Shown: piece by piece, positions 3,661-28,036 of the stretch
Position numbering within the stretch: the first letter of the stretch is position 1
How the letters are laid out: every line of letters begins with the position of its first letter
Origin: Corallococcus sp. AB038B
Lineage (GTDB): Bacteria > Myxococcota > Myxococcia > Myxococcales > Myxococcaceae
Length of the DNA: 64,000 nt
Reading direction: 5' to 3'
Assembly: GCF_003668955.1 (NCBI RefSeq)
Contig: NZ_RAWO01000002.1
Location: 215,605 to 279,604 of the forward strand
Notes under the pieces: model-generated
What the model saw: only the letters and a program-made list of their open reading frames with translations
Told to the model about the DNA's origin: nothing
Databases searched by the model: none
Position numbers and translations under genes: made by a program

Positions 3661-3674
3661 CGGCGCCCCCGGAG

Positions 3675-5234
3675 CTACTCCGCCTCGCGGGCGAGCTGGA
3701 TGAGCGCGTCGGCCAGCGCGGCCATGTGTTCGGGCCGCGAGGCCGGATTGATGAAGACGGCCCGCAGGTACAGGTGGCCACTGGCGTGCCGGTAGCAGCT
3801 CACCGCGAACTTCCGGCTCTGCATCAGCCGTGACAGCAGCGCGTCGTTGCGTGCGTTCTCCCTTGCGAGCTCCTCGGGTGTCTCGCTGGCGGCCTTCGGG
3901 CGGAGGCGGAAGGCGAGCATGTTCATGGTCGGCGTGTCGGGGAAGAGCTCGAAGCAACCGCTCTTCTTCAGGCGCCGCGTGAAGTCCCGGGCGAGCGCGA
4001 AGAGGTGGTCCACGAGCCGGCCGTAGCCATCACGGCCGAAGTGGCGCAACAGCAGCCAGGCGCCCAGCGAGTTGAGTGCGCGCGAGCCGTCCAGCGTCAC
4101 CTCGCCCAGGTCGGACACCTCGCTCGTGACGAAGTAGTCCAGGCTCACCTTGCCCAGCAGCGTGAGCAGCCGCGCGTCGCGCACCAGCAGGCCGCCCAGT
4201 TGCGCGTTGAGGCCCAGCACCTTGTGGGGATCCAGCGTGACGGTGTCCGCGCCCTGGAGACCGTCGAGCAGGCCCCGGTGGCGCTGGGAGAAGAGCAGCA
4301 GGCTGCCGTGGGCGGCGTCCACGTGGACGAGCGCGCCGTGCTGATGAGCCAGCCGCATGCCCTCGCGCAATGGGTCGACGGCGCCCACTCCCGAGCTCCC
4401 CGCGGTCAGCACCACCACGGCGGGGAGCTGGCCCTGGCGCCGCGCCTCCACCAGCGCGGCCTCCAGGGCGATGGGACACAACCGGTCCTGGCCGTCGGTG
4501 GGAACGCGGTGCAGTCCCGCGTCTCCCAGCCCCAGCTGGCGGACGGCGGCGAAGATGCTGGGGTGCGAGGCCTCGGACGCGAAGACGCGCATCCCTCGGT
4601 GGCCCGTGCGGGACAGCGCCTCCACGAGTCCCAGCGCGTTGACGTCTGCCCCGGCGCGGCGCAGCGCTTCGTTGCGCAGGATGAGCAGCGCCTGGAAGTT
4701 GGATTGCGTCCCGCCGGACGTGAAGCAGCCTCCGGCCTGGGGGACGTCCGGAAACGCGAGGGACGTGAGCCAGCCGAGGACCTGTCGCTCGACGAACGTG
4801 CCCGAGCGCGCGGACGAGAAGGTGATGGGGTCCTGCGCCAGGGCGCGGATGAGCAGACCGCTGAAGACGGAGTAGTCCGTGGGCGGGACGTCCAGCTGCG
4901 CGAACCACGTGGGCGAGCGCTTGTCACGTCCGTGGGGCATCACGTGTTCGGCGACGTCCGCGAGGATGGCCTCGATGGGTTGCCCCTGCTCCGGCAGCGG
5001 CGCTTCGAAGGCCCTGGCGATGAGGCGGGCGGGGATAGGCGGGGGGACGGGGCTTCCGGCTGGGGCCCGCAGTCGCTGAAGCGCGAGGGCGACAAAGCCC
5101 TCCATGCGTGCGCGGACTTCGTCCTCGGGCAGGGCCTCGAAGGCGGCACGCAGGGCCGGGGGCAGCTCCGGGTAGGAGGGCTCGGTGACGTCGTCGTGGA
5201 TCATCGCGGCGGGGGTCACTCGTGTCGCACTCAA
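3675..5234 (-). CDS. PLP-dependent group II amino-acid decarboxylase (DABA/glutamate/aromatic decarboxylase family)
   Basis: 'TLDPHKVLG' PLP-lysine motif, 'TSGGTQSN' and overall fold II decarboxylase similarity. The track start TTG at 5234 overlaps the NRPS-PKS stop (TTGA); in-frame alternatives are GTG 5219 and ATG 5204. Last gene of the operon. Confidence 0.85.
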   Translation of the reverse strand: MSATRVTPAAMIHDDVTEPSYPELPPALRAAFEALPEDEVRARMEGFVALALQRLRAPAGSPVPPPIPARLIARAFEAPLPEQGQPIEAILADVAEHVMPHGRDKRSPTWFAQLDVPPTDYSVFSGLLIRALAQDPITFSSARSGTFVERQVLGWLTSLAFPDVPQAGGCFTSGGTQSNFQALLILRNEALRRAGADVNALGLVEALSRTGHRGMRVFASEASHPSIFAAVRQLGLGDAGLHRVPTDGQDRLCPIALEAALVEARRQGQLPAVVVLTAGSSGVGAVDPLREGMRLAHQHGALVHVDAAHGSLLLFSQRHRGLLDGLQGADTVTLDPHKVLGLNAQLGGLLVRDARLLTLLGKVSLDYFVTSEVSDLGEVTLDGSRALNSLGAWLLLRHFGRDGYGRLVDHLFALARDFTRRLKKSGCFELFPDTPTMNMLAFRLRPKAASETPEELARENARNDALLSRLMQSRKFAVSCYRHASGHLYLRAVFINPASRPEHMAALADALIQLAREAE

Positions 5235-8200
5235 GGCGTCTCTCCTCCCACGCGGGAAGGCGGGGATGGGGGCTCATCGGGTTGAACGGGGGCGGCGGGC
5301 AGGTGGGCTCGTGCAGGCGCGGCGTGCTCCAACAGCGGCGCGAGGACGCGCGCGAGCCCTTCCACCTGCGGGGGATGCAGCAGCGTGTAGTGGTCGCCAG
5401 GGACAGGGATGACGTCCAGGCGGGGAGTGAGTGCGTCCCAGCCGCGCGCGTCCGGATTGCCCGAGTCCGCGCCGACGATGAGCGTGAGGGGCACCGGAAG
5501 CGGAGTGAGCGTGTGCCTTGCGCGCGCGCGGACGTTGGCGGTGAAGACGCGGAGCAGGATGCGCAGCTCCTCCAGTCCGGACTCCGCGGAGAAGAGGCCG
5601 GTCCGCTGACCTTCGGCATACAGGTGGTGCAGCAGCGCCTCCGGTCCGCCCTCGATGACCTCCGCGGGAAGGCGGGGAGGCAGCCCGGCGAGGCGGGCCA
5701 GATCCAGCGCGAAGTGGAGGGCCAGCTCCGAGTCGTCATCCTCCATGGCGGCGTGGGCCGGGCTGGGCTCGATGAGGGCGAGCAGCTCCACGGCTTCACC
5801 GGCCTGATGGAGGTGGCGCGCCATCTCCGCCGCGATGACGGTGCCGAGCGACCAGCCTCCCAGTCGATAGGGGCCGTGAGGCTGGGCGGATCGGAGCGCC
5901 GCGACGTAGTGCCGGGCCATGGCGTCGATGGAGTCCAGTGGCGGAAGCCGGCCGTCGAGGCCCTGTGCCTGGAGTCCGTAGACGGGCTGCTCCGGGCCCA
6001 GCCGCCGCGCGAGGTCCGCGAAGGCGAGGACGTTGCCGCCCGCTGGGTGGACGCAGAAGAAGGGCGGGCGTGTCCCTCCGCGCTGGATGACGACGAGCGA
6101 GGACGTTGGGGCGGGCCCGCCATCGAGAACGGCCGCGAGCTGTTCGACAGTCGGGGCCTGGAAGAGCGCGGCGAGCGGGAGGCTCTTGCCGGTCCGCGCG
6201 CGGATGCTCGCGGCCATACGGACGGCGAGCAGTGAGTGGCCACCCGACGCGAAGAAGTCGTCGTGGATGCCGACCTGTTCCTTGTGGAGCAGCTCCGCCC
6301 AGAGCGTGGCCAGTAGCGCCTCCGTGGGAGTGCGCGGGGCGACGTAGTCGGAGGTGGCGCGGGCGTCTGGAGGCGGCAGTGCTCTGCGGTCGAGCTTTGC
6401 CTGGGCGGTGAGAGGCAAGGCGTCCAGGTGCACGAAGGCGGAGGGCACCATGTACTCGGGGAGGTGCCGCAGGAGGAAGGCGCGCAGGCTGGCGGCGGAG
6501 AGTGTGTCCGGAGCGGTCACGTAGGCGACGAGGCGCTTGTCGCCGGGGACATCCTCGCGAAGTAGGACTGCGGCCTGGTGCACGTCGGGGTGGATCAGCA
6601 GGGCGGCTTCGACTTCGGGCAACTCGATGCGGAAGCCGCGCAGCTTCACCTGGGAGTCGAGGCGGCCGAGGAACTCGAGCGAGCCGTCTGGGCGCCAGCG
6701 GGCCTTGTCACCGGTGCGGTAGAGGCGCGCGCCGGGCGTGGAGGAGAAGGCGTCAGGGAGGAAGCGCTCGGCGGTGAGGGCAGGCTGCTCGAGGTAGCCG
6801 CGCGCGAGGCCGTCACCGCCGATGAAGAGTTCACCGGGCAGGCCGACGGGAAGCGGAATGCCGTGGGCGTCGAGGATGTAGACGCGAGTATTGGCCAGGG
6901 GCTTTCCGATGGGCAGCGAGGCACCGGGGAACGTGGTGTCACGGAGGTGGAAGGCCGTGGCGAAGACGGTGGACTCGGTGGGGCCGTAGCCGTTGGTGAC
7001 GGGGAGTTGGAGGGAGTCGAGCACACGGCGCGCATGAGGAAGCGAGACGACGTCGCCTCCGGTGAGCAGGTGCTTGAGGGGGCGCAGGCCTTCGATGTGG
7101 CCGTCGACCATCTGGGAAAAGAGGCCGGAGGTGAGCCAGAGGGTGGTGATGGAGGCGCGTTGAATCAGTGCGCCCAGCTCTTCGAGGGATGGAGGAGAGG
7201 GTGGGGCGATGACGAGACGTGAGCCGTGAAGCAGGGCGCCCCAGATCTCGAAGGTTGAAGCATCGAAGGAGATGGGGGCGAGGAGCAGGAAGGACGCGTC
7301 GGGCCCGAAGTGAGTGAGGCCTGTGCTGAAGAGGGTGCGAAGGACGGCGCGATGAGGAGTGCCGACACCCTTGGGCCTGCCGGAGGATCCGGAGGTGAAG
7401 TCGATATACGCGAGGCTCAGTGGCAGGGCGGAAGGCGCAGGGGCATGGGTGGGCAGGCCCTCCAGCGCGACGTCCTCCAGCACCACGGTGCTCAAGGACT
7501 CGGGCAGCTTCGCCAGGAGTGCACGAGACGTGAGGAGGACACGCGGACGGGCGTCCTCCACCATGGCCGCGAGACGCTCGCGCGGATAGCTGGGATCCAA
7601 CGGCACATAGGCGCCACCGGCCTTGAGGATGGCGAGGAGGCCGACGACGAGCTCCAGCGAGCGGTCCAACGCGATGGCCACGCGCGAGTCGGTGGTGACG
7701 CCGAGACCGCGCAGGTGGTGGGCAAGGCGGTTGGCCTGCGCATCCAGCTGCCGGTAGGTGAGGCGCGCCACTCCGCACTCAAGTGCGAGTTTCTCGGGGA
7801 AGCGGGCGACGACCTGGGCGAAGACTTCAGGAAGGGTGGAGTCCTGCGGGTAGCTGGCCTCGGTGTTGTTCCACTCGACGAGCACCTGACGACGCTCGTC
7901 CTCTCCGAGCATGGAGACGGAGGCCAGAGGCGCGTCGAGCCGTGCCAGCAGTGCGTCCACGAGGAGGCCGAAGTGCGCGGCCATGCGCGAGGCGGTGCTC
8001 ACTTCGAAGAGGTCGGTGTTGAAGCCGAGTGCTCCCTGAAAGCCCTCGGGAGTGTCGGAGAGGATGAGCTGCAATTCGAACTTGGAGGTGGAGCCGTCCA
8101 CGTCCATGGGATGCAGTGAGAGGGCCTGCTCACGAATAGGCGCGGCGGGAGCGTTCTGCAGGGCGAAGAGGACCTGGAAGAGCGGGGCGCGGCTCATGTC

Positions 8201-11200
8201 GCGCGTGGGGTGAAGCTCTTCCACCAGCCGTTCGAAGGGGACGTCTTGATGGGCGTAGGCCCCCAGCGCCGTCTCCTTCACCTGTCGCAGCAAGTGAACG
8301 AACGACTTCTGCCCATCCACCTGGATGCGCAGTGCCAGCGTGTTGACGAAGAATCCGATGAGGCCTTCGAGCTCCCCGCGCTGACGTCCTGCGATGGGCG
8401 AGCCGACGGTGACGTCCTCCTGGCCGGAGTAGCGGGAGAGGAGCACCTGGAAGGAACCCAGCAGCAGCATGAAGGGCGTGACGCCCTCCTGGAGGCTCAG
8501 GGCCTTGAGCTGGCGGGACGTCTCGGCCGGCAGGACGACGGGCACCTGAGCGCCGTTGGAGGACTGCACGAGAGGCCGGGGCTTGTCCGTGGGCAGCTCC
8601 AGCGGAGCGGCGCCGGAGAGCTGCTGCTTCCAGTACTCCAGTTGCGCCTGGAGGACGTCACCTTGCAGCCACTGCCGCTGCCATACGGCGTAGTCGGCGT
8701 ACTGCACGGGCAGTGGCGGCAGCGGCGATGGCCTACCCTGGGAGAAGGCTTCGTAGAGGGCGGCCACTTCGCGCACCAGCACGCCCATGGACCAACCGTC
8801 GGAGACGATGTGGTGCAGCGTGAGCGCGAGCACGTGCTCGGTGGAGCCCAGGCGCCAGAGCTTCGCGCGGGCCAGGGGACCGGAGTCGAGCTGGAAGGGC
8901 CGTGAGGCTTCCTCGTGCAGCTGCGGCTCCAGGGGCAGGGCACCCGGCTCCACGACAACGAGCGGCAAATGCGCCGTGGCAGAGATGCGCTGCAGCGGCT
9001 GGCCTTCGTGCTGGACGAAGGTGGTGCGCAGGGCTTCGTGACGGCGCACCAACTCATCAAGCGCGCTGCGCAGGGAGGCTTCATCCAGGGGGCCCACCAG
9101 CCGCACGAAGGTGGGCATGTGGTAGGCGGCGCTCAGCGGTTGCAACTGGTCGATGAACCAGAGGCGCTGCTGGGCGAAGGAGAGGGGCAAGTCGCCGTCG
9201 CGCGGGACGGGACGCAGGGCGGGGGCCTGCGTGCGCGCGGCGGAGTCGATGCGCGCCGCGAGCGCGGCCACGGTGGGTGCTTCGAAGAGCGCTCGCACCG
9301 GCAGCTCCACTTCCAGCGCGGAACGGATCCGGGAGACGAGCTGGGTCGCAAGCAGCGAGTGGCCTCCCAGTTCGAAGAAGTGATCGTGAATTCCGATGCC
9401 TTCCCGGCCCAGGACCTTCTCCCAGAGAGAGACCAGCTGGGTCTCCAGCGCGTTGCGCGGGGGCTCGCGGGTCGCGGAGCCGCGTGGGGCTTCCGGTGCG
9501 GGCAGCGCCTTGCGGTCCACCTTGCCGTGGGCAGACAGCGGCAAGGCCTTCATCGCCACGAAGGCGGACGGCACCAGGTACTCCGGCAGCCGCTGGCGCA
9601 GGTGGTCTCGCAGCCGCGCGGTGTCCAGTTCCGGGGGCACGACGTAGGCCACCAGTCGCTTGTCTCCGGGGACGTCCTCGCGCACCAGCACGGTTGCCTC
9701 GGTGACGTCGGCGTGCTCGCGCAGCACCGCCTCCACTTCGCCCGGTTCGATGCGGAAGCCGCGCAGCTTCACCTGGAAGTCCATGCGCCCCAGGAACCTC
9801 AGCGTGCCGTCCTCGCTCCAGCACACGCGGTCCCCGGAGCGGTACAGCCGCTCGCCTGGGGACGCCGCGAAGGGATGCGGCACGAAGCGTTCCGCGGTGA
9901 GGGCTGGCCGCCCCAGGTAGCCCCGCGCCAGACCGTCACCGCCAATGTACAGCTCGCCTGGCACCCCCACCGGGACCGGCTGCATCGCCGCATCCAGCAC
10001 ATAGACCTGGGTGTTGGCGATGGGCCGGCCGATGGGCACGGAGCTGCCCACCGCGTCTCCGGGAGCCATCACGTGGCAGGTGGTGAAGGTCGTGCTCTCC
10101 GTGGGGCCGTAGCCGTTCACGAGGCCGCGCGACTGGGCCAGCCGCTCGCGAACCCGTGGCACGGGGAGCACATCGCCTCCGGCGAGGAGCTGCGCCACGG
10201 CCGCGAGGGCTTGGGGCTGCTCCTGCTGCATCTGGTCGAAGAGCGCCGCCGTCAGCCAGAGCACCGACACCCGATGCCGGAGCAGGGCCTGGCCCAGCTC
10301 CTCCAGCGACGGAACCGCCTGGGGAAAGAGCACCAACCGGCCGCCGTGCAACAGCGCACCCCAGATCTCCAGGGTCGACGCGTCGAACGCAAGCGGCGCG
10401 AGCTGCAACACGATCTCAGCGGGCCCCAGCTTCACGAAGCGCGAGCCGATCAACAGCCGCACCACGCCTCGGTGGGGAATGGCCACGCCCTTGGGCGTCC
10501 CCGTCGAACCCGACGTGTAGGTGACATACGCCAGCTGATCCGCACGGACGGGCGCGTGCGGCGCCTCCACCGGCTGACGTGCAATCCGTTCCCCGTCGGA
10601 GTCAAGGCACACCACCGGGCGCGAGGACTTCGGAAGCACCGGCGTCAGGGACTGCTGCGTGAGCACCGCCGCCACATCCGAATCCGCGAGCAGAAACGCC
10701 AACCGCTGGGGCGGGTAGGAAGGATCCAGCGGCACGTAGCAGCCACCGGCCTTGAGGATGCCCAGCAGTCCCACCACCAAATCCACGTTCCGGTGGAGAC
10801 AGACCCCGATGCGCGGCTCCGGACCCAGGCCCAGCGTCAGCAGGAAGCGCGCGAGCTGATTCGCACGCGCATCCAGCTGCCGATAGGTGAGCGTCGCCCC
10901 GGCTGCCTCGACGGCGACGGCGTCCGGAGTTCGCAGCGACTGTTCGTGGAAGAGCGAGTGGATGCTGGCGTCGCGTGGGTAGTCGGAAGCGGTGGTGTTC
11001 CACTCCACGAGCACCTGGCGCCGCTCGTCCTCTCTGAGCATGGAGACCGAGGCCAGGGGCGCGTCGGGCCGTGTCAGCAGCGCGTCCACGAGGCGGCCGA
11101 AGTGCGTGGCCATGCGCGAGGCGGTGCTCGCGTCGAATAGGTCGGTGTTGAAGGCGAGCGTGCCCCGGAAGCCCTCGGGGGTGTCGGAGAGGATGAGCTG

Positions 11201-14200
11201 CAATTCGAACTTGGAGGTCGCGGTGTCCGCCTCCAAGGGGTGCAGCGACAGGGCCTGGCTTTGAAGAGGCTCCGTGCCGGGTACGCCTTGCAGGGAGAAG
11301 AGGACCTGGAAGAGCGGAGCGCGGCTCATGTCGCGCGTGGGGTGAAGCTCCTCCACCAGCCGCTCGAAGGGGACGTCCTGATGGGCGTAGGCTCCCAGCG
11401 CCGTCTCCTTCACCTGCGCGAGCAAGGCCCGGAAGGAGAGGTCGGGGGCAACGCGTGCACGAAGCACCAGCGTGTTGACGAAGAATCCGATGAGGTCTTC
11501 GAGCTCCCCGCGCTGACGTCCAGCGATGGGAGAGCCGACGGTGACGTCCTGCTGGCCGGAGTAGCGGGAGAGCAGCACCTGGAAGGCGCTCAGCAGCAGC
11601 ATGAAGGGCGTGACGCCCTCCTGGAGACCCAGGGCCTTGATTCGACTGGACGCCTCGGCTGGCAGGACGACGGGCACCTGCGCGCCGTTGGAGGACTGCA
11701 CGGGAGGCCGGGGCTTGTCCGTGGGCAGCTCCAGCGGAGCGGCGCCGGAGAGCTGCTGCTTCCAGTAGTCCAGTTGCGCCTGGAGGACGTCGCCCTGCAG
11801 CCACTGTCGCTGCCATACGGCGTAGTCGGCGTACTGCACGGGCAGGGGTGGCAACGGCGAAGGCCGGCCCTGGGAGAAGGCCTCGTAGAGGGCGGCCACT
11901 TCGCGCACCAGCACGCCCATGGACCAGCCGTCGGAGACGATGTGGTGCAGCGTGAGCGCGAGCACGTGCTCGGTGGAGCCCAGGCGCCAGAGCTTCGCGC
12001 GGGCCAGGGGACCTGCGTCGAGCTGGAAGGGCCGCGAGGCCTCCTCGTGCAGCTGCGGCTCCAAGGGAAGGGCACCCGGCTCCACGACGACGAGCGGCAG
12101 CTGAGCCGTGGCGGCGATGCGCTGAAGCGGTTGGCCTTCGTGCTGGACGAAGGTGGTGCGCAGGGCTTCGTGACGACGCACCAGTTCGTCGAGCGCGCGT
12201 CGCAGCGAGGCTTCATCCAAAGGGCCCACCAGCCGCACGAAGGTGGGCATGTGGTAGGCGGCGCTCAGTGGCTGCAACTGGTCGATGAACCAGAGGCGCT
12301 GCTGGGCGAAGGAGAGGGGCGGGTCGCCGTCGCGAGGAACAGGGCGCAGGGCGGGAGCTTGCGTGCGCGCGGCGGAGTCGATGCGCGCCGCGAGCGCGGC
12401 CACGGTGGGCGCTTCGAAGAGCGCTCGCACCGGCAGCTCCACCTCGAAGGTCTGCCGCACCCGCGAGACCACCTGCGTCGCCAGCAACGAGTGACCACCG
12501 AGCGCGAAGAAGTCCTCCTCCACGCTGATCCGCTCCGTGCGCAACAGCCCGGCCCACAGGGCCGCGAGCCGTTCCTCGGTGGGGGTTCGCGGGGCGATGA
12601 AGGTCGCTTCGCGGGTCGTTTCTTCAGGCCCGGGCAGGGCCTTGCGATCCAACTTGCCGTTCGAGGTGAGCGGCATCGCTTCCAGGTACACGAAGGCGGC
12701 AGGCACCATGTAGGCCGGCAGCCGCTCCTGGAGGAATGCGCGCAGTTCCCCGGCGGACACGGGCTCCGCCGCACTCACGACGTAGGCCACGAGCCGCGTG
12801 TCCCCGGGCATGTCCTCGCGCGCCACGACCCAGGCCTCACGTACGGCGGGGTGTTCGCTCAGGGCCGCGGTGACTTCTCCCGGCTCAACACGGAAGCCGC
12901 GCACCTTCACCTGGAAGTCGGCGCGACCGATGAACTCCACGCGTCCGTCCGGCAGCCAGCGCACCCGATCCCCGCTGCGGTACATGCGCGCGCCTGGGAC
13001 GGGGCTGTGCACGTCTGGCAGGTAGCGCTCCGCCGTCAGCTCCGGCCTGCCGAGATAGCCGCGCGTTACCTGCGCGCCGCCGATGAACAGCTCGCCCGGG
13101 ACGCCCACGGGCACGGGCCGCAGCCTTTCGTCCAGGACATACAACCGCGTGTACGCCAGGGCTTGGCCCAGCGGCACCGGTGCCTGGGGCCGGACCTCCA
13201 CCGGACCCGCGATCACCCCCACGGTCGTCTCCGTGGGGCCGTAGTGGTTGAACAGCTCGCAGTCTGGCGCCAGCGCGCGCAACTGCTCCAGCAGGGCCGG
13301 CGAGGAGGACTCACCTCCCAGCACCAGCTTCTTCCGGGGCAGGATGTGGCGGGGCTCGGCCGCTGTCAGCAGTGCGGCCAGGTGCGATGGAACGATCTTC
13401 ATGCAGTCCACCGCGTGGCGCTGGAAGTACGCGGCCACCTCCGCGGGACTGCTGGCCAGCTCCTGCGGCAGCACGTGAAGCAGGCCTCCCGTGCACAGCG
13501 CGGGGAAGAGCACCGTGTTGCCCAGGTCCGCGGCGAAGGTGGAGAGGAGCGCGAAGCTTGCGCACTCCTCCAGCCGCAGCCTTTCGGTGGCGGCCCGCAC
13601 GTACTGGAAGAGCTGGGCATGCTCCACGGCCACGCCCTTGGGTCGGCCCGTGCTGCCCGACGTGAAGAGGACGTAGGCCAGTGACCGCGCGGTGGCTCCG
13701 TGGACGGGAGCTTCCCGTGGCTGGGCCGCGAGCACCTGCGCGTCCGTGTCCATCCGCACCACGTGCGCCGCCAGCGAAGTGAAGGCCTCCGCGTGACGAG
13801 ACGCTGTCACGACGACGGGCGCGGCGATCTCCTCCACCAGGGCCCGCAGTCGCTGCGCGGGTTGGGACGGCTCCAGCGGGACGTACGCCCCTCCGGCCTT
13901 CCAGACCCCCAACAGAGCCACCACCATGTCCACCGAGCGCTCCAGGCACAGCCCGACGCGCGTCTCGGGCCTCACACCCAGCGAGCGCAGCCGCCACGCC
14001 AGTTGGTTGGCGCGCGTGTCCAGCGCTCCATACGTGAGCACCTCACCGGCGCAGGCCACCGCTGGTCGCTCCGGGTGGCGGGCGGCTTGCTCCTCGATGA
14101 GCGTGTGCAGGGGGCATGGTGCGACGAAGGCGTCCTCGGTCGCGTTGAAGCCTTCCATCACCTGCGCGCGTTCCCCGGCGGACAGCAGGGACAGGTCGCC

Positions 14201-17200
14201 CACGGGCGCATCCGGCGCGGCGAGCGCGGTCTCCGTCAACGTGCGCAGGTGTTCGCCCATGCGGGTGATGGTGGCCGCGTCGAACAGGTCCGTCCGGTAG
14301 AGGATCTCTCCGGCCAGGCCCTCGGGTGTCTCCGCAAGTGAGAGGTTCAGGTCGAACTTCGCCGCGACGACGTCCGACTCCACTGGACTCAGCTCCAGCG
14401 CGGATGCGCCCCCCTCCACCTGGATGGCCGCGTCCGGTGTGTTCCTCAGCGTGAACATCACCTGGAAGAGAGGGGAGTGACGAAGGGAGCGCTGTGGCTG
14501 GAGCTCCTCGACGAGCTTCTCGAAGGGGAGGTGCTGGTGCTCGAAGGCCGAGAGCGTGGTGGCCCTCACTTGGGCAAGCAGCTGACGGAACGACGAGCGC
14601 GGCTCCACGTGGGAGCGAAGGACGAGGGTGTTGACGAAGAAGCCGATGAGGCCTTCGGTTTCGGAGCGGGTGCGGCCCGCGATGGGAGCGCCGACGCTGA
14701 TGTCGAGCTGGCCGGAGTAGCGGGACAGGAGCAGCTGCCAGAGGGCGAGCAGGGCCATGAAGGGAGTGGCGCCTTGCTGCTGGCAGAAGTCGAGGAGGCT
14801 GGAGGTGAGGGGCTGGGGAAGATGGAAGGGGACCCACGCGCCGCGAGAGGACTGGACGGCGGGACGCGGCCTGTCGGTGGGTAGCTCAAGGAGCGCGGGG
14901 GCACCGGAGAGTTGCTGGCGCCAGAAGTCGAGGTGGCGCGAGAGGACGTCGCCTTGCAGCCACAGCCGCTGCCACGCGGCGAAGTCGGCGTACTGGAGGG
15001 AAAGGGGCGGCAGGGGTGAAGGCCTGCTCTGGGAGAAGGCCGCGTAGAGGGATGCGACCTCACGCACGAGCAGGGCCATGGACCAGCCGTCGGAGACGAT
15101 GTGGTGCATCGTCACCACCAGCACGTGCTCCTCCGCGCCGACTCGCAGCAGCAGGGCTCGCAGCAGCGGACCCTCCGCCAGATTGAACGGGCGTTGGGTC
15201 TCTGCTTCGGCGCATTGCCGGACGCGCTCCGAGTCCGAAGCGTCCGACAAGTCCACCTCTGGCAGAGCGAACTCCGTGGGAGGCTGGATGATCTGCACGG
15301 GCTCGCCGTCCTGCGTGGCGAAGACGGTGCGCAGGGCTTCGTGACGTTCGACGAGCCCGCTGAAGGCCCTGCCCAGCGCTCCCCGGTCCAGGCGTCCGCG
15401 GATCCGCAGCACCGTGGGGATGTTGTAGGCGGTGCCTCCGGGTTCGATTTGCTCGATGAGCCACAGGCGCTGCTGCGCGAAGGACAGCGGCAGGGCGCCC
15501 GTGCGTGGCACTGGCAGAAGGGGCGGAGCCCGCGATGCGTCCTCGGGGCGGGCCGCGTCCAGCCGGCGTGCGAGCGCCGCGAGCGTCGGGGCTTCGAAGA
15601 GGGCTTGCAGCGCCAGCTCGACGCCGAAGTCCGCGCGGATGCGGGAGACGAGCTGTGTGGCCAGCAGCGAATGGCCTCCCAACTCGAAGAAGTGATCCTC
15701 CGAGCCCACTTGCTCCACCTGGAGCAGCGGCTTCCAGAGCGCCGCGAGCCGCTCCTCCGTGGGCGTGCCCGGGGGCACGTGGCCCGGAGCGCCGCTCGCG
15801 CGGAGCTCGGGTGAAGGCAGGGCCCTTCGGTCCACCTTGCCACTAGAGGTGAGCGGCAACGCATCCAGCACGACGAGCGTCGCGGGCACCATGTACTCGG
15901 GCAGACGCTGCTGGAGGAACACGCGCAGCGCGGCCACGTCCAGAGGCCCGTCCCCGTTCGCCACCACGTACGCGACCAGCCTGGGCAGCCCCGGTGCATC
16001 CTCGCGCACCAGCGCCACGGCCTGGAGGACCGCCGCGTGCGCTTGCAGCGCGGCCTCCACCTCTCCCAGCTCGATGCGGAAGCCTCGCAGCTTCACCTGG
16101 AAGTCGGTCCGGCCCAGGTACTCGAGGTCTCCCTTCTGCCTCCAGCGCACGCGGTCGCCAGTGCGGTACATCCTCGCGCCGGGCTCGGTGCCGAAGGGAT
16201 CAGGGAGGAAGCGCCCGGCGGTGAGGTCCGGACGGCCCAGGTAGCCCCGGGCCAATCCCACGCCTCCGATGAACAACTCTCCCGGCACGCCCACGGGCAC
16301 CGGACGCAGGTGCGCATCCAGCACGTAGAGCCGAGTGTTGGGCCACGGCTTGCCGATGCCGGGCGCGTCGGCGTGGACTGGCCCTGGCGTGATGGAGGCG
16401 CAGACGGTGGCTTCGGTGGGACCGTAGGCGTTGAGCAGGGTGCGGCCCTCACTCCAGCACCGGGCAATCTCCGGCGACAGGGCCTCGCCCGCGGAGATGA
16501 CGGTGCGCAGGCTCGCGAGGTTCTCCGACGTTAGCTGCGCCAGTACCGACGGCGTCAGCGTGACCGCGGTGATCTCCTGCTCGGTCAACAGCGCGCGCAG
16601 CGGCGCGTCCGGCAGCAGCCGCTCCCGAGGGGCCAGCACCAGCGTGGCACCCGCGAGCAGTGGCGCGAAGGTCTCCAGGATGGCGGCATCGAAGGTCGGG
16701 GACGCGAACTGGAGGACGCGGCTTTCAGAGGACAGTTCATGCGCTCGGATCGCCGCGAGCACCGAATTGCACAGCCCCCGGTGCGCGAGGAGCGTGCCCT
16801 TGGGCCGTCCGGTGCTGCCCGAAGTGTAGATGACGTAGGCCAGGTTCCCGGCGTGGACCTCCACCGCCGGTGGCGTCGTGGGGCGGCGCGAGATGGCGGC
16901 CGCGTCGGCGTCGAAACAGCACGGCACGCAGGACGAGGACAGGGGCAGCACGTCCAGCAGCGCGTCCTGGGTCAGCAGCACCTGGAGCCCCGAGTCCTCC
17001 AGCATCAGCGCGAGCCGCGCGGTGGGATGGGCGGGATCCAGGCAGAGGAAGGCGCCTCCCGCCTTGAGGATGGCGAGCATTCCCACCACGCCCTCCACCG
17101 AGCGCTCCACGCACAGCCCCACGATGACCTCGGGGCCCACCCCCAGCGCGCGCAGGTGGTGCGCGAGTTGATTGGCGCGCGCGTCCAGCTGGCGGTACGT

Positions 17201-20200
17201 GAGGTGTTGCGTCTCGAAGACGACCGCCCGCGCGTCTGGCGTGCTGCGGACCTGCGCCTCGAACAGCGTGTGCAGGCTCGCGTCGCGCGGGAAGTCCGCG
17301 TCGCTGGTGTTCCACTGCACCAGCAACTCGTGGCGCTCGGCGTCCGTGAGCAGGGGCAGCTCGGACAGCCGCAGATGGGGGCTTCGCAGCGCCCCCTCCA
17401 TCAGCACGTGCAGATGGGTGACCAGGCGCCGTGCCGTCTCCGGGCGGAACAGGTCGCTGGCGTACTCCAGCGTGCCCGTCAGGCCTCGCGGCGTGTCGGT
17501 GAGCACCAGCGTCAAGTCGAAGCGGCCCGTGCCGCCCTCGATGGGAATGGGCTCGAAGCGCAGCCCCGGCGCCTCCAGCGTGCCCATGGGCATGTTCTGG
17601 AACGTGAAGTTCACCTGGAAGAGCGGCGAGCGCGAGGGATCCCGCTCCGGCCGCAACGCCTCGACGAGCTTCTCGAAGGGCAGGTCCTGGTGGGCGTGCG
17701 CCTCCAGGGTCGTGTCGCGCACGCGGGCAAGCAGCTCGCGGAACGTGGGGTCCGCGTGCAGGCGAGTGCGGTACACCAGCGTGTTCACGAAGAAGCCGAT
17801 GAGCGCTTCCTGCTCCGCGAAGCGGCGGCCGGCCATCGCGCTGCCGACGCTCACGTCGTCCTGTCCTGCGTAGCGGCTGAGCAGGGCCTGGAATCCGGCC
17901 AGCAGGGCCATGAACGGGGTCACGCCTTCGGCCTGGCACAACGCCGCCAGGGACTCGGAGAGCGCGCGCGGCAGGGCGACGGGCACTGCGTCGCCACGGA
18001 AGGACGCCACCGGCGGACGCGGGAAGTCGGTGGGCAGCGTCAGGAACGCGGGGGTGCCTTCCAACTGCTGACGCCACCAGCGGATCCGCGACTCCAGGGC
18101 CTCCCCCCGAAGCCACGCGCGCTGCCACGCGGCGTGGTCGGCGTACTGCACCGGCAGCGGGGCCAGCAGGGAGGGCTGCCCGGACGCGAAGGCCTGGTAG
18201 AGGGCCACCATCTCCCGGACCAGCACGCCCAGCGACCAGCCGTCGGAGACGATGTGGTGCATCGTCACCACCAGCACGTGCCGCGCCTCCGCGAGCCGGA
18301 TCCGCACCGCGCGCAGCAGCGGCCCCGCGGCGAGGTCGAACGGACGCAGTTGCTCTTCCGCCGCGAGCCGGTGTGCCTCCGCTTCGGGCGCGTCGTGGGA
18401 CGACACGTCCATCACCGCCAGCCGGAAGTCCGCCGGCGGGTGGATGCGCTGCAGGGGCGCTCCGCCGTCCGCGTGGAAGGTGGTGCGCAGTGCTTCGTGC
18501 CGGCGGACGAGCTCCGTGAAGGCCTGCTCTAGAGCCGCCGTGTCGACGCGGCCCTCCATCCGGAGGGCGGACGGCATGTTGTAGGCGCTGCCTCCCGGGT
18601 GGAGCTGATCGAGGAACCAGAGGCTCTGCTGGGAGAAGGACAGCGGCAGGGGCTGTCCATCGCGAGGCACCGGCGTCAGCGGCGGGAGGATGTTCGCGGG
18701 AGCGCCAGCAGCGGTCGCGGCGTCCACGCGCTCCGCGAGCTTCGCGGGCGTGGGCGCTTCGAAGAAGGCGCGCAGGGGCAGCTCCACGGCGAAGGCGGAC
18801 CTCACGCGCGCGAGCACCTGGGTGGCCAGCAGCGAATGTCCGCCCAGCTCGAAGAAGTCATCGTCCACGCCGAGCGCGTCGATGCCCAGCATCTCCTGCC
18901 ACAGCTCCACCACGCGGCGCTCGCTGTCGCCACGGGGCGCCACGTACGGAGTCGCCAGGGGAGGGCGGGGATGCCGTCCTGTGTCCTGGGAACCGCTAGC
19001 CGGATCCGGCGCCGTCCCGGAGTTCCCACCGGCATCCGGCTCCTCCGCGCGCGGCGGGCCCTGGGAGATCCACCAGCGTCCTCCTTGCCCCGAGGCGGCG
19101 AGCAGACCCAGCCACACCGGGATGACCTCCTCCCGCCACGCATCCAGGTCGACCACGTACCAGCGTGGGCCCGGGCCCCGGTTCTGTTGCGCCGCGAAGG
19201 TGTCCATCGAGGCATGCGCGGCGGCCAGCACGCCACGGCCCACGCCGCCCACCACGGCCGTCAGCGAAGAACACACCGTTACGAAGTCCGGAGCACGCCC
19301 CTGGAGCGCTCCGGCCAGCGCGCCCAGCACGCCCACTCGGGAGCGGAAGACAGGCGCCCACGCCTCATCCGTGGCGTCCGCCAGGGATTGCCTGACCGCG
19401 CCCGCCGTGCCCTGCGGCAAGAAGAAGACGCCGTGGATCGCGCCGAAGCGGGCCTCGGCTGCGAGCAGCCCTTGGAGGAGCGGTTCGGGATCACCCGCGC
19501 CCATCGGAGCGAGGAGCACGCCCTGGGCCCCCATGCGCTCGAGATCCCCGAGGCGCTCCAGGTGGGACGCCTGAGGCACGGTGTCGGTCAACAGCACCAG
19601 CCTCGCCCGCGCGGTGGTGGAGAGCGCTTCGGCCAGAGCGAGGCCTCCGGCCTCCAGGTCTCCCATGATCAGGTACACGCCGCTCTGGCGCAGGGGGGAG
19701 GCCGCCGTGCGCGACGCGACGACCGGCTCGAAAGACTCCGTGAAGCGGTGCGGTCCGCGCAGCGCGACCACGGCTGGTGCGCCCGCGCCCAACTCCGCTA
19801 CCAGCTGCTCCGCCCAGCGTGGACCTTCCTCCGGCCGTGGCGGGCTCACGTCGATGGCGCGGCAGCGCAGCCCCGGGTACTCCTGGGACAGCACCCGGCA
19901 CACGCCGGACGCGGTGGCCTGCCAGGCGCGCAGGGGCTCCTCGCCCGTCACATCCTGGGCGCCACACGTGATCACGGCCAGCGTCACGGGCCGCGCGGCT
20001 GCGGCCGGCCCCAACCGCCGCGCGAGCTCCAGCAGTCCGTGAAGCACGCGGTCCACCGCGCCCGAGCCCTCCTCCGGGGACAGAGGCCACAGGAACGCGA
20101 CGTGGTCCGGTCCTCCACCGGCAGCCAGCCGTTCCTCGAGCGGCGCCCATGTCGCGTCCAATCCCAGCGCGAGGACGTCCGCGCCCCGCGCCTCCATCAG

Positions 20201-23047: not shown

Positions 23048-26000
23048 CCCCGTCCAGCTCCAGGTCCGCGTCGTCGTCCGAGTCCCGCGCGGGTGCGGCC
23101 ACCGTCTTGCGAGCGAAGGCCTGTCGCCGGCGAGACCGGTCGCGTCCGGACTTCGCCCCGCTGTCGGATCCGCCGCCCTGCGCCAGGCGTTCCGCCAGGG
23201 CCCGGACCGTGGAGTGCTGGAAGAGCACCGTCAGCGGCAGCTCCACGCCCAGCTCCGCGCGCAGCCGCTGGTGCAGCCGCAGCGCGAGCAGCGAGTTGCC
23301 GCCCAGCTCGAAGAACGGATCATCCAGGCCCACGCGCTCCACCTGGAGCACGTCGCTCCAGAGCCGGGCCAGTTGCTCCTCCCGCTCCGTGCGCGGAGCC
23401 TCGAACGTTCGCCCCGATTCCAGCTGACCCGCAGTGGGTGGCGGAAGCGCGCGCACGTCCAGCTTGCCGTTGGCGGTGAGGGGGAACGCGGGCACGGAGA
23501 CGAAGGCGGAGGGCACCATGTGCGGCGGGAGCCGCTCCAGGAGGAACGCGTGCAGCGCCGTCGCGGTGGGTGGTTGTCCCGCCGTGGCCGGGACGAGCCA
23601 CGCGACGAGCCGCTGGCCCCCCGCGGGCGTGTCCTGGATGAGCACGGCGGCCTCTTCCACCGAGGCGTGCTGGCGGAGCGCCGCCTCGATTTCCCCCAGC
23701 TCGATGCGGAAGCCCCGCAGCTTCACCTGTCCATCGAGCCGGCCCAGGAACTCCAGCTCCCCGTCCTGCCGCCAGCGCACGCGGTCTCCCGTGCGGTAGA
23801 GGCGCGCGCCCGGCTCGGACGCGTACGGATCCGGCACGAAGCGCTCGGCCGTGGTGCCCGGCAGGTTCAGGTAACCCCGCGCGAGGCCCACGCCGCCCAC
23901 GCACAGCTCTCCGGGGACTCCCACTGGCACCGGCGACAGCCGCGCGTCCAGCACGTACACGCGCACATTGGGGATGGGGCGGCCCAGCGGCGGCGCGCGG
24001 CCCTCCGGCCGGACCTCCGTCGCGGTGGCTGTCACCGTCACCTCCGTGGGCCCGTAACCGTTGATGAAGCGGCGGCCCTCGCCCCAGCGCGACACCAGCT
24101 CCGCGGTGCATGCCTCGCCACCGGAGAAGACGGTGCGCAGCGAGGGCAGGCCCGTGGCGTCGGTGGCCGCGAGCGCAGTGGGCGTGGCGTTGAGCACGGT
24201 GATGGCCTGTTGCTTCAGCAGCTGGTGCAGCGGCTCGCCGGGCATCAGTCGCTCCACCGGCGCCAGGCACAAGGTGCCGCCGGCCGTGAGGGTGGCGAAG
24301 ATCTCCTCCACGGACACATCGAAGCCGGGATTGGAGAACTGGAGCACGCGCGAGGCCGGGCCCAGCTCGCTGACGCGCGCCTCGTGCACCACCAGGTTGC
24401 AGGCCGCGCGGTGCGTGGCCACGACGCCCTTGGGCTGGCCCGTGGAGCCAGAGGTGTAGATGACGTACGCGGGGCCGTCCGGCAGGGGCGCTCCAGGGGG
24501 CGCCCGCGAGGTGTCCGCATCCGGCACCCCATCCTCGAAGCACACCGTGCGCGCGCCCGGAGCGGAGGGCAGTCCCGCGAGCAGGGTCCGGTGGGCCAGC
24601 AGCACCTTCACGGCGGAGTCCTGGAGCATGAAGGCCAGCCGCGCCGCGGGATAGGTGGGATCCAACGGGACATAGGCACCGCCCGCCTTGAGCGTCGCGA
24701 GCATGCCCACCACCATGTCGAACGAGCGCGCGGCGCACAGCCCCACGTACGCCTCCGGCCCCACGCCCAACCCGCGCAGGTGCCAGGCCCACTGGTTGGC
24801 GCGCGCATCCAGCTGCCGGTAGCTCAGCGATTGGCCCTCGAAGGTGAGCGCGGGCGCGTAGGGCGTGCGGTGCGCCTGGGCTTCGAAGAGGGTGTGCAGA
24901 CCGTCCTCTTGGGGGTAGGGCGCGGAAGTGCCGCTCCACGCCCCCAGCAACTGTTCGCGCTCGTTTGGGGTGAGCAGGGGCAGCCGAGACAGGCGCTCGT
25001 GCGGCGTGGCCAGTGCTCCCTCCAGAAGGCGGATCAGGTGCGCCAACATCCGGCGGACGGTGCCGGGTTCGAACAGGTCCGTGGGGTACTCCGCGGTGAG
25101 GCGCAGTCCCTGGGGCAGGTCCTCGGCGATGAGCGTCAGGTCGAACTGGGCGGAAGCCGTGTCCACCGGACGCGCCTCCAGTTGAAGGCCCGGCACCTCC
25201 AGGGGCGGCAGCGGTGCGTTCTGGAGGACGAACATCGCCTGGAAGAGGGGCGCGCGGCTCGGGTCGCGACCGGGCTTGAGGGCGTCCACCAGCCGCTCGA
25301 AGGGAAGCTCCTCGCGAGCGAAGGCATCGAGCGCCACCGGCTGGAGACGCGCCAGCAGCTCCCGGAAGGACGGGGCACCTGAAAGGTCCGTCCGCAGGAC
25401 GACCGTGTTGACGAACAGGCCGATGAGCCCCTCCAGCTCCGCGCGGGGGCGGTTGGCCACGGGCGTTCCGACGGCGAGGTCCTCCTGACCGGTGTAGCGG
25501 TGGAGCAGGGTCTGGAACACCGCCAGCAGGGTGACGAACAGCGTGCGGCCTTCCTTGCGGGCGAACGCCTTGAGGTCCGCGGTGAGCGCGGTGGGCAGTT
25601 CCACCGCTTCGCGCGCGCCGCGAGTGCCCAGCACCGCCGGACGCGGCTTGTCCGTGGGCAGCTCCAGCAACGCGTGGGGGTCGATGCGCTCGCGCCACCA
25701 GGCGAGCCGTGCATCCGCCTCTTCGCCCTGCTGGGCCCGACGCTGCCAGCTGGCGTAGTCGCCGTACTGCAGCGGAAGCGGCGGCAGCTCGGGAGCCTTG
25801 CCCTCCTGGAAGGCCGCGTAGAGCGCCGTCAACTCGCGGACGACGACGCCCATGGACCAGGCGTCTGACACCCCGTGGTGCATGGCGAAGAGGAGCAGGT
25901 GCTCGCGCGCGGACAGCTGGAAGAGGCGCGCCCGGAACAGCGGACCCCGTTCCAGGTCGAAGGGCTCACGGGCCACCTCCGCGACGCGCTGGACGGCCCG

Positions 26001-26378
26001 GGCCTCCCGTTCTGATTGAGGAAGCGCCTGCAGGTCCTCCAGGGGGAGTGCCGCCTCCAGCGTGGGTGCGACGACCTGCACGGGCCGCCCGTCCGCCAGA
26101 GAGAAGGTGGTGCGCAGCGCCTCATGGCGGATCACCAGCGCCTGGAGCGCGCGCTGGAGCACCGGCGCCTGGAGCTCGCCCAAAAGCCGCACGGCCACCG
26201 GCATGTTCAGCGCCGAGCCCCCGGGGCTCCACTGTTCGAGGAACCACATCCGTTCCTGCGCGAAGGAGAGCGGAGCGCGCCTGGGGGCCGCGACCTTCTC
26301 CTGGAGGAGCTTCGCCAGCAGGGCCCGCTTGTCGTCCGAGGGTGACGTCATGGTTTCCATCATCGCCCTGGAGGGCAT
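23034..26378 (-). CDS. NRPS loading module: N-terminal (starter-type) C domain, A domain, PCP, acidic C-terminal docking tail
   Basis: C 'MHHGVSDAWS'; A 'YTSGSTGQPKG', 'NGYGPTE', 'GELCVGG'; PCP 'LGGNSLLAL'. C-terminus 'DSDDDADLELDGDADV'. Stop TGA 23034-23036 lies 14 nt inside the next gene. Alternative in-frame ATGs at codons 6, 7 and 10. A-domain code D-V-E-N-F-G-G-V. Confidence 0.9.
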   Translation of the reverse strand: MPSRAMMETMTSPSDDKRALLAKLLQEKVAAPRRAPLSFAQERMWFLEQWSPGGSALNMPVAVRLLGELQAPVLQRALQALVIRHEALRTTFSLADGRPVQVVAPTLEAALPLEDLQALPQSEREARAVQRVAEVAREPFDLERGPLFRARLFQLSAREHLLLFAMHHGVSDAWSMGVVVRELTALYAAFQEGKAPELPPLPLQYGDYASWQRRAQQGEEADARLAWWRERIDPHALLELPTDKPRPAVLGTRGAREAVELPTALTADLKAFARKEGRTLFVTLLAVFQTLLHRYTGQEDLAVGTPVANRPRAELEGLIGLFVNTVVLRTDLSGAPSFRELLARLQPVALDAFAREELPFERLVDALKPGRDPSRAPLFQAMFVLQNAPLPPLEVPGLQLEARPVDTASAQFDLTLIAEDLPQGLRLTAEYPTDLFEPGTVRRMLAHLIRLLEGALATPHERLSRLPLLTPNEREQLLGAWSGTSAPYPQEDGLHTLFEAQAHRTPYAPALTFEGQSLSYRQLDARANQWAWHLRGLGVGPEAYVGLCAARSFDMVVGMLATLKAGGAYVPLDPTYPAARLAFMLQDSAVKVLLAHRTLLAGLPSAPGARTVCFEDGVPDADTSRAPPGAPLPDGPAYVIYTSGSTGQPKGVVATHRAACNLVVHEARVSELGPASRVLQFSNPGFDVSVEEIFATLTAGGTLCLAPVERLMPGEPLHQLLKQQAITVLNATPTALAATDATGLPSLRTVFSGGEACTAELVSRWGEGRRFINGYGPTEVTVTATATEVRPEGRAPPLGRPIPNVRVYVLDARLSPVPVGVPGELCVGGVGLARGYLNLPGTTAERFVPDPYASEPGARLYRTGDRVRWRQDGELEFLGRLDGQVKLRGFRIELGEIEAALRQHASVEEAAVLIQDTPAGGQRLVAWLVPATAGQPPTATALHAFLLERLPPHMVPSAFVSVPAFPLTANGKLDVRALPPPTAGQLESGRTFEAPRTEREEQLARLWSDVLQVERVGLDDPFFELGGNSLLALRLHQRLRAELGVELPLTVLFQHSTVRALAERLAQGGGSDSGAKSGRDRSRRRQAFARKTVAAPARDSDDDADLELDGDADV

Positions 26379-26641
26379 GAAAACGTTGAGAACCCCGCGA
26401 ATGTCTCACGAAACATCCGGGGCTCCGACAAGCCGCTGGATCTCCCCCTTCACGGCGACTTTTCGACCCAGGGGAGGGGGCTCTTGCAGTCGCAGCGAAA
26501 CGGTGTTTCCGGCCGAGTGGCCTCCCACCGGGCCCTCTCAGGGTGAGGGGAGGGATGTCTGTTATTGATGTGTGGCTTTGCGGTGGAGAAAAGTCGCCGG
26601 GCACGCCCGTAGGCACGGTGGTCCGGGTAGACTCCGGAGCC

Positions 26642-28036
26642 ATGGGTGCCGCGTCGAACTCCCCCGGAGGGAAGAATGCGCTCTTGCGCGGCCTTCCTTC
26701 CATTGAACAACTCTTGCGTCGACCGTCGTTGGAGTCCCGGCTCGCGAACCTTCCCCATGCCCGCGCCGTCGCGGCACTGCGGCTCGCCGTTGAACGTGTG
26801 CGCGCAAGGTTGCTCGGGGGGGACCCGCGTCCTTTCGAGGACGCGGACGTGGAGGCGGCGCTCGCGTCCCTGGCCACGCCGAACCTCCGGCGCGTGATCA
26901 ACGCCACCGGCGTCGTGCTCCACACGAACCTCGGCCGCGCACCGCTCGCTCCAGAAGCCGTGGAGCGAGTTGTCGCCGTGGCCCGGGGCTACTCCAACCT
27001 CGAATACGACCTGGACGAAGGCGAACGCGGCAGCCGCTACGCTCCGCTCATCGGCCTCCTGCGCACGCTCACCGGCGCGGAGGACGCCATCGTGGTCAAC
27101 AACTGCGCGGGGGCCGTGCTCCTCATCCTCGCCGCGCTAGCCTCCGGCCGTGAGTGCGTTGTGTCCCGCGGCGAGCTCGTCGAAATCGGCGGAGGCTTCC
27201 GCATCCCGGACGTCATGCGCCAGTCCGGCGCGAAGCTCGTCGAAGTGGGCACCACCAACCGCACCCGCCGCGCGGACTACGCCAACGCACTGAGTCCAGA
27301 CACCGGCCTCATCGTGAAGGTCCACCGCTCCAACTTCGCGCTCGTCGGCTTCACGGAAGAGGCGCCCCTGACGGAGCTCACCGAGTTGGGACGCTCCCGT
27401 GACGTGCCCGTGTTCCAGGACCTGGGCTCCGGCGCACTCATTCCGCTGTCCGGCCCAGGCCTCACCCCGGAGCCCACCGTGGGCCAGGCCATCCGGGACG
27501 GCGCGGACGTCGTTGCCTTCTCCGGCGACAAGCTCCTCGGCGGCCCCCAGGCCGGCGTCATCGTTGGCCGCGCGGACCTGCTCCAGCGCATCAAATCCCA
27601 CCCGCTCACACGTGCGCTGCGTGTCGACAAGATGACGGTCGCGGCCCTGGAGGCGACGCTGGAGCTGTACCGGGATGGCCGCGCGGACGCGGTCCCCACC
27701 CAAAGCCTGCTCACCCAGCAACCGGCTTTGTTGCGATCCCGTGCCGAACGCCTGGCGGCCCTGCTCGCGGCGCACGGCGTCGAGGGCCGGGTCGTGTCCG
27801 TGGACGGACAAGTAGGTGGAGGTGCCATGCCGCTGTCCCGGTTGCCTTCCTACGCTTGCAGCCTCACCGTAGAAGCGCCGAAAGTATTCCTGGAACGTCT
27901 GCGCGAAGCCGAGGTGCCCGTTATTGGCAGGATTGCGGATGACGAGGTCGTTCTCGACGTCCGGTGTCTCTCAGAGGAGGACCTGGGGCAGGTCGCGCAG
28001 GCTGTGGCGGCCGCCCGTTCGGGAAGCCAGCCATGA
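26642..28036 (+). CDS. selA: L-seryl-tRNA(Sec) selenium transferase
   Basis: 464 aa from the ATG at 26642 ('[28 protein letters not shown]'). Motifs '[40 protein letters not shown]' contain the SelA PLP-lysine region. The track ORF extends upstream to 26543. Confidence 0.85.
   Translation: [464 protein letters not shown]

Follow-up and report, generated by a model that had tools for sequence, protein, structure and literature searches.

Probable concerted evolution of two neighbouring condensation domains in a hybrid PKS–NRPS gene of Corallococcus sp. AB038B

We describe here a repeat in a 64,000-nucleotide stretch of Corallococcus sp. AB038B (contig NZ_RAWO01000002.1, positions 215,605 to 279,604 of the forward strand), which as a whole is called the window below. 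It lies in a hybrid polyketide synthase–nonribosomal peptide synthetase (PKS–NRPS) gene, where the third and fourth condensation (C) domains, C3 and C4, are nearly identical, together with the ends of the thiolation (T) domains in front of them. This near-identity is real and goes far beyond the background of the domain family. We examine how it has arisen, by comparing the two copies with the other C domains of the window and with the orthologous loci of two related species, Corallococcus carmarthensis and Corallococcus llansteffanensis.

The gene and its repeat

The features that the analysis is concerned with are the following, with the edges of the repeat taken from sliding-window identity:

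5231..23047, minus strand: hybrid PKS–NRPS gene, 5938 amino acids (aa), from the list of open reading frames (ORFs), Pfam domains and core motifs
11003..12439, minus strand: repeat copy A, comprising the T2 tail, the T-C linker and the whole of C3 to VLVEWN (aa 3537-4015); 1288/1437 nucleotides (nt) equal to copy B
7874..9307, minus strand: repeat copy B, comprising the T3 tail, the linker and the whole of C4 (aa 4581-5058); follows copy A in the gene at an offset of 3132 nt
11477..12439, minus strand: young layer of copy A (aa 3537-3857), with the T tail, the N-lobe of C3 and its C-lobe to motif C5; 93.1% identical to 8345..9307
8345..9307, minus strand: young layer of copy B (aa 4581-4901), counterpart of 11477..12439
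11003..11227, minus strand: older distal layer of copy A (aa 3941-4015), the last part of the C-lobe as far as the C-A linker; 88.9% identity with 7874..8098
11297..11422, minus strand: middle stretch of copy A, of the same older layer (aa 3876-3917); 92.9% identical to 8165..8290
9308..11002, minus strand: unique spacer between the copies, containing the adenylation (A) domain A3 and the first half of T3, which differ from A4/T4 at the background level (synonymous divergence, dS, 0.99)
12488..12490, minus strand: codon of Ser3520, the phosphopantetheine attachment site in the core motif of T2; the conversion tract starts 17 codons downstream

The gene is one intact ORF of 17.8 kb. Judged by its Pfam domains and core motifs, its architecture is KS-AT-KR-ACP-C1-A1-T-C2-A2-T-C3-A3-T-C4-A4-T-TE. 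The protein contains HHIVSDG four times, GGHSL five times and SGSxGxPKG (core motif A3 of adenylation domains) four times, and its two halves score 778 and 763 bits against PF00668, for which the gathering cut-off is 30.6. Both C domains of the repeat have the catalytic HHxxxDG, in the form HHIVSDG, at aa 3701 in C3 and aa 4745 in C4, and neither is directly preceded by an epimerisation domain in the Pfam and motif architecture. The Stachelhaus-type A-domain codes are DALTIAAVCK (A1), DLTKVGHVGK (A2), DALWLGGTFK (A3) and DAFWLGGVFK (A4). The last two reproduce the shorter codes DALWLGGT and DAFWLGGV quoted in an earlier note on this DNA, and we take both to be Val-type codes. The building blocks of the product are predicted to come in the order X, a ketide with beta-OH, an aromatic residue, Asp, Val and Val/Ile. 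The GC content is 70%, with GC3 at about 0.9. The earlier note had placed the repeat in modules 3 and 4, which is correct for the third and fourth C domains of the protein, although with the PKS module included in the count these fall in modules 4 and 5; a further C-A-T gene lies upstream, and this simple numbering needs correcting.

The two copies are offset by 1044 aa, or 3132 nt. As the earlier note had it, aa 3537-3797 and aa 4581-4841 are nearly identical, with 254 of 261 residues matching. In a codon-based alignment, the whole tract (aa 3537-4015) is identical at 1288 of 1437 nt (89.6%, with 3 gap positions), well above the ~70% that the note had set as its lower limit, and the first part (aa 3537-3857) at 897 of 963 nt (93.1%). 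The copies differ at 149 of the 1437 positions, and their longest exact shared run is 86 nt. When the complete C domains are compared, C3 and C4 share 89.4% of their DNA and 82% of their third codon positions. The window has five C domains in all, and their nine remaining pairings show a mean identity of 62.7% (sd 1.9, maximum 65.4%), with 51-55% at third positions, which puts the C3-C4 pair ~14 sd over the background.

The tract is discrete and its edges are abrupt. At the 5′ side the identity in sliding windows rises from 0.76 to 0.96 at aa 3535-3537, and at the 3′ side it falls from 0.89 to ~0.4 at aa 4010-4025; the T-domain sequence upstream is 62% identical between the copies and the A-domain sequence downstream 59%, and these flanks carry the signal of orthology described below. 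The similarity had been said to decay gradually past the motif PVVLPAE, but it in fact holds at 89-93% up to VLVEWN (~aa 4015) and then ends abruptly, with two divergent islands in between (52% identity at aa 3858-3875 and 67% at aa 3918-3940). It is also not a module-length duplication, as the near-identical part takes up only ~1.44 kb of each 3.13-kb period, which is under half.

A duplicated region of this kind could be a GRINS element (genetic repeat of intense nucleotide skew), for which the criteria are a length of >500 bp and >80% identity within the same cluster, and mean absolute GC and TA skews >0.15 (150-nt windows, 30-nt step) that are strongly correlated (PMC8256042). Like GRINS, the tract is a >500 bp, >80% identical duplicated region in an assembly-line gene, attributed to gene conversion: it extends over 1437 nt at 89.6%, and its mean absolute GC skews of 0.148 and 0.144 are barely below the threshold. 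GRINS are, moreover, occasionally found in NRPS modules of hybrid clusters (PMC8256042). The mean absolute TA skews are, on the other hand, just 0.118 and 0.110, the GC-TA skew correlations are 0.04 and -0.42, and the skews are within the background of the whole gene (GC 0.116, sd 0.051; TA 0.137, sd 0.030). The intense correlated skews of GRINS (Nivina et al. 2021) are thus absent here. That the tract is a GRINS element is hardly credible, and we reject this identity on the skew criteria in favour of a non-GRINS duplicated region; duplicated regions are not all GRINS (PMC8256042). The strongest skew of the gene is found elsewhere, in the A4 region (~6428-7816, minus strand), where the mean GC skew of the coding strand is -0.25 over 1.4 kb. 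This region is single-copy and by definition no GRINS repeat.

Synonymous divergence and the orthologous loci

For the first kilobase of the tract, Nei-Gojobori estimates give the window C3-C4 pair a dS of 0.22 and a nonsynonymous divergence (dN) of 0.024, while the corresponding values for the other paralogue pairs are 0.74-0.84 and 0.33-0.37. The flanking segments, namely the first halves of T2 and T3 on one side and A3/A4 on the other, are saturated, with dS ~1-1.5. Within the tract, dN/dS is 0.11-0.32. As synonymous sites are beyond the reach of selection on the protein, their preservation means that the similarity reflects DNA ancestry that is recent relative to that of the other modules. 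The saturation of A3/A4 and of the first half-T excludes a recent duplication of the whole module, and the shared unit is accordingly half a T domain plus a C domain.

We now consider the related genomes. One scan of species-representative genomes returned a single true orthologue, in C. carmarthensis CA043D (locus L036); the other 79 loci are unrelated NRPS with 46-66% aa identity. Protein searches were made with a 564-aa and a 179-aa piece, and among the hits listed, all of them below 1000 aa and none a full-length orthologue, the useful ones are the C. llansteffanensis fragments P0007 and P0121/P0201. The orthologue of C. carmarthensis, the closest genome found, is collinear over nt 2319-17760 of the gene (15.4 kb) at 91.7% DNA identity. 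Its module set, which the earlier note had proposed to compare, is the same as that of the window, and so are its A-domain codes, from which it follows that the predicted product is unchanged. The C. carmarthensis contig (NZ_RAWE01000069.1) ends at 43488, ~24 nt past the last aligned base and before the expected NRPS stop.

In C. carmarthensis the two copies are even more alike. They are 96.5% identical over the first 963 nt, with exact runs of up to 160 nt, and their dS in the young tract is 0.07, to be compared with an orthologue dS of 0.17-0.28. In both species the synonymous divergence between the paralogues is thus far below that of the other pairs (0.22 and 0.07 vs 0.74-0.84). The 5′ edge of the C. 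carmarthensis tract lies earlier than that of the window, directly after the FF codons (FF|ELGGHS) of the T-domain motif FFxxGGxS.

These synonymous sites are also what speaks against selection at the protein level, purifying or convergent, for similar substrates and with no exchange of DNA. A Val-type acceptor for both C domains and the low dN/dS of the tract would be in keeping with such selection. It does not, however, preserve third positions at 82% vs 51-55%, nor leave exact runs as long as those of the window (86 nt) and of C. carmarthensis (160 nt), and we assign it practically no probability.

The informative sites among four sequences, C3 and C4 of the window and C3 and C4 of C. carmarthensis, group as follows:

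First kilobase: 25 sites by genome, 4 by position, 3 cross
Island 1 (aa 3858-3875): 0 by genome, 21 by position, 0 cross
Rest of the C-lobe (older tract): 5 by genome, 19 by position, 2 cross
Start of the A domains: 1 by genome, 134 by position, 0 cross

In Fisher tests the first kilobase differs from the A domain with p = 3e-24 and from the rest of the C-lobe with p = 2e-6. Species-specific replacements common to both copies are QLH/QLR, GSTEH/GPTEH, QGRPS/QGKPS, PAE/TAE, RYSGQ/RYAGQ and QRGELE/QRAELE. Neighbour-joining trees of the young tract join the window copies with 86% bootstrap support and the C. carmarthensis copies with 100%, so that paralogues group by genome to the exclusion of orthologues, with moderate support in the case of the window pair. 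In the older tract the orthologue pairs are recovered at 73% and 84%, and all four copies exclude C3 of C. llansteffanensis at 100%. In the A domain, orthologues are together at 100%, with C. llansteffanensis included.

The other reading of the earlier note, a recent module duplication, is not upheld by these data. In its simplest form, a single recent duplication of the module, or of T-C, would have been followed by divergence with no further exchange. The period of the repeat is indeed one module (3132 nt), the A3 and A4 codes are related and of Val type, and in part of the A-domain core the A3 and A4 proteins are somewhat more alike than other A pairs. Nevertheless, A3 differs from A4, and the first half of T2 from that of T3, at the background level (dS ~1), and the arrangement is present in both C. 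carmarthensis and C. llansteffanensis, so that any duplication must be older. The young-tract copies group by genome all the same, those of C. carmarthensis being much closer to each other (dS 0.07) than the orthologues are (dS 0.21-0.23), and the edges of the tract vary between the species. A single duplication is for these reasons very unlikely.

As outgroup we used the draft assembly of C. llansteffanensis (GCA_003612055.1), in which the locus is represented by two contigs, L081 (2588 bp) and L082 (822 bp). L081 spans from the middle of C3 through A3 to the T3 core motif and is 81% identical to the window, and L082 spans from the A-T linker through T to core motif C4 of a C domain. With this outgroup, the sites of the young tract that group by genome are polarised as 11 derived in the window, 9 derived in C. 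carmarthensis and 6 ambiguous; over the full alignment the numbers are 13, 12 and 7, respectively. Substitutions that arose after the split of the two species are therefore present in both copies in both lineages, which requires conversion in each of them. The derived shared states and the differing 5′ edges mark these as independent events in separate lineages.

The draft is itself broken at the repeat. L081 ends in the same 127 nt with which L082 begins, and the 127 nt at the end of L082 recur, with one mismatch, at the start of L081, so that the 822-bp contig flanks the 2588-bp one at either end. Two identical or near-identical copies would be expected to give this pattern with a k=127 short-read assembler, and the pattern fits the remark in the earlier note that such a repeat is a hotspot for assembly collapse. 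It would probably reflect a very recent conversion in C. llansteffanensis, which would be a third event. L082 also has, at ~nt 480-520, an insertion of ~8 aa (..LPTAAREALEQ..) relative to the window and C. carmarthensis, in the N-lobe loop before HHxxxDG.

Such repeats do break short-read assemblies, as the C. llansteffanensis draft illustrates, and the similarity in the window could conceivably be an assembly artefact as well, with the module duplicated by the assembler or the copies homogenised by consensus polishing. The copies differ, however, at a tenth of their positions (149/1437), the C. carmarthensis locus, which was assembled independently, has the same position-specific islands, and the flanks are unique and the ORF intact over 17.8 kb. 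An artefact is very unlikely.

Concerted evolution, by repeated non-reciprocal gene conversion between T2(tail)-C3 and T3(tail)-C4 of the one gene, is very probably the correct explanation. The homogenisation acts on the DNA level, and there are at least three conversion layers of different age. Gene conversion between the C domains had been put forward in the earlier note, and the low dS, the sharp edges, the grouping by genome and the derived states shared in both lineages bear it out. In the oldest layer, the whole C domain to VLVEWN was homogenised after C. llansteffanensis branched off and before the window and C. carmarthensis lineages split, which is where the exclusion of the C. llansteffanensis C3 by all four older-tract copies places it. 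In the younger layer, the first ~1 kb, which extends from the second half of T through the linker and N-lobe into the C-lobe as far as C5, was re-homogenised independently in the window and C. carmarthensis lineages, and the event in C. llansteffanensis would be the third and probably very recent one. The 5′ edges vary by lineage, and all are in or beside the T domain. Conversion would be tolerated since C3 and C4 do nearly the same job, both being apparently of LCL type with a Val-type acceptor. GC-biased conversion gave no signal in a count of low power (4 AT>GC vs 9 GC>AT), a result that is neutral and not contrary to the proposal.

The unconverted islands

Two segments of the tract have remained different between the copies:

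11423..11476, minus strand: island 1 in C3 (aa 3858-3875), VLRARVAPDLSFRALLAQ, just past motif C5; 52% identical to its C4 counterpart
8291..8344, minus strand: island 1 in C4, ALRIQVDGQKSFVHLLRQ; one synonymous change between the window and C. carmarthensis orthologues, dN 0
11228..11296, minus strand: island 2 in C3 (aa 3918-3940), past motif C7; 67% identical to its C4 counterpart, with a one-codon indel
8099..8164, minus strand: island 2 in C4, counterpart of 11228..11296

At island 1 the copies are as diverged as unrelated C domains, yet the sequence is almost invariant between orthologues, and C. llansteffanensis shares the C3 type. In a comparison of the five C domains, the C3 version is typical of the family, whereas the C4 version is atypical and unique, and on these grounds we reject the possibility that island 1 came from a different C domain of the cluster. 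Much smaller islands lie within the young tract, at aa 3678 (Ala in C3, Ser in C4) and aa 3802-3803 (RI in C3, QL in C4). Island 2 corresponds roughly to the latch/bridge region of FscG C3, as placed by numbering offset and not by residue alignment; the offset is anchored in the FscG C3 numbering by the catalytic His, by R2906-V2908 and by the bridge (2923-2944; PMC8097023).

Through three or more rounds of homogenisation the islands have persisted, and orthologues have kept them conserved. Either the conversion tracts repeatedly missed them, or convertants in which they were overwritten have been removed by selection. In the latter case, selection would keep the islands and a few single residues specific to their position, and these residues may be needed to match each C domain to its substrate or to the A domain of its own module, which is unconverted. 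The C-terminal subdomain of C domains carries residues of the C-A interface (bioRxiv 10.1101/2021.08.23.457306), which makes co-adaptation of the islands to the unconverted A domain a reasonable hypothesis. A more specific proposal is that the islands, together with aa 3678 and aa 3802-3803, are the minimal determinants of the place specificity of the C domain, for example of its fit to its own A domain or donor chain; we consider this possible but rather doubtful.

Several points have to be weighed against concerted evolution as described above. The dS of 0.22 between the window paralogues is about that between orthologues, which implies that the last conversion in the window took place not long after the species split, and a post-split conversion in this lineage relies on the 11 polarised sites and the 86% bootstrap value. 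Conversion in the window lineage is thus less well supported than that in C. carmarthensis. The outgroup is ~20% divergent, and some homoplasy is possible. The orthologous loci compared are two, one of them fragmentary; the collapse in C. llansteffanensis is inferred from the contig overlaps, and the selective account of the islands is hypothetical.

Neighbouring genes and known systems

Two further genes of the cluster adjoin the PKS–NRPS gene:

23034..26378, minus strand: upstream C-A-T gene of the same cluster, 1114 aa, overlapping 5231..23047 by 14 nt
3675..5234, minus strand: downstream pyridoxal phosphate (PLP)-dependent decarboxylase gene, overlapping the NRPS stop codon

The C domain of the upstream gene has a DNA identity of just 60-62% to C1-C4 and therefore takes no part in the homogenisation. 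Its motif is HHGVSDA (25860-25880, minus strand) in place of the canonical HHxxxDG, and it may be a starter-type C domain; the A-domain code of the gene is DVENFGGVTK. The end of this gene overlaps the NRPS start by 14 nt (23034-23047), and at the other junction a TTG at 5234, which follows GGAGGAG and is an unconfirmed candidate for the start codon of the decarboxylase gene, overlaps the NRPS stop (TTGA, 5231-5234). These overlapping junctions suggest that the C-A-T, PKS–NRPS and decarboxylase genes are translationally coupled. A gene for an FAD oxidoreductase is divergent from the decarboxylase gene, and a homologue of SelA (L-seryl-tRNA selenium transferase; 26543-28036, plus strand) directly adjoins the cluster. 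In scans of the whole 64-kb window for tRNAs and Rfam families, none was found.

Concerted evolution of NRPS C and A domains by internal recombination is known, for instance, from daptomycin/A54145/CDA and from syringopeptin (Medema et al. 2014, PMC4256081). As in those systems, paralogous domains of one assembly line have here been homogenised, and in trees their grouping follows the cluster or genome and not the position. In the model proposed for this, domains alternately diverge and are homogenised, and those that diverge in function escape the cycle (PMC4256081). The model fits the two layers here, young and older, as well as the islands left unconverted. Differently from the systems of Medema et al., just one pair of the five C domains and no A domains are involved; and where their protein trees extend across compound families, the evidence here is at the nucleotide level, with dated layers, in three closely related species.

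The edges of the tract can also be compared with the sites at which NRPS have been recombined, in nature and by engineers. The 3′ edge of the old layer lies at the conserved motif WN(A/T/N)T of the C-A linker, which we take to be the fusion site of exchange units (XUs). These units are fused in the C-A linker (bioRxiv 10.1101/2021.08.23.457306). For the T domain, a natural breakpoint has been described around the two glycines of FFxxGGxS, and the second half of T was found to have a common history with the C domain that follows it (Bozhueyuek et al., bioRxiv 10.1101/2022.12.02.518901). A breakpoint of this type, that of the thiolation-domain exchange units (XUTs), is found at the present locus, where the 5′ edge lies in the T domain, in C. 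carmarthensis exactly at FF|xxGGxS and in the window 17 aa past the Ser; the 822-bp contig of C. llansteffanensis begins in the A-T linker. In the studies on XUs and XUTs, however, the exchange is across positions or clusters and the product is altered, whereas here two adjacent modules exchange DNA and the predicted product stays the same. There is a difference in what is exchanged as well, namely half-T plus C here and half-T-C-A-half-T for an XUT.

The closest solved structures are the C-A didomains of the teixobactin synthetases Txo1 and Txo2 (PDB 6oyf, 6p1j), with C3 aligning over its full length with Txo1 (E 3.5e-122). Like these, C3 is an ordinary elongation C domain followed by a WN.T linker. 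They are relatives in sequence only and are uninformative on the repeat.

The evolutionary mode is already known for NRPS genes, and the locus is an unusually clear example of it rather than a new biological principle. It is a clean and datable natural case of partial module homogenisation, in which the second half of T and the C domain have been converted and the A domain and a few patches of the C-lobe spared. That the tract edges are at the engineers' fusion sites, in the T core motif and the C-A linker, gives these sites independent natural support. With ~1 kb at 93-97% identity between the copies, the repeat is a site of assembly breaks and potentially of module loss or gain by unequal crossing-over. 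The unconverted islands are candidate residues for compatibility with the A domain or the substrate, and should they indeed be place determinants, the pair would be a natural map of the C-domain residues that must travel with the A domain in NRPS engineering.

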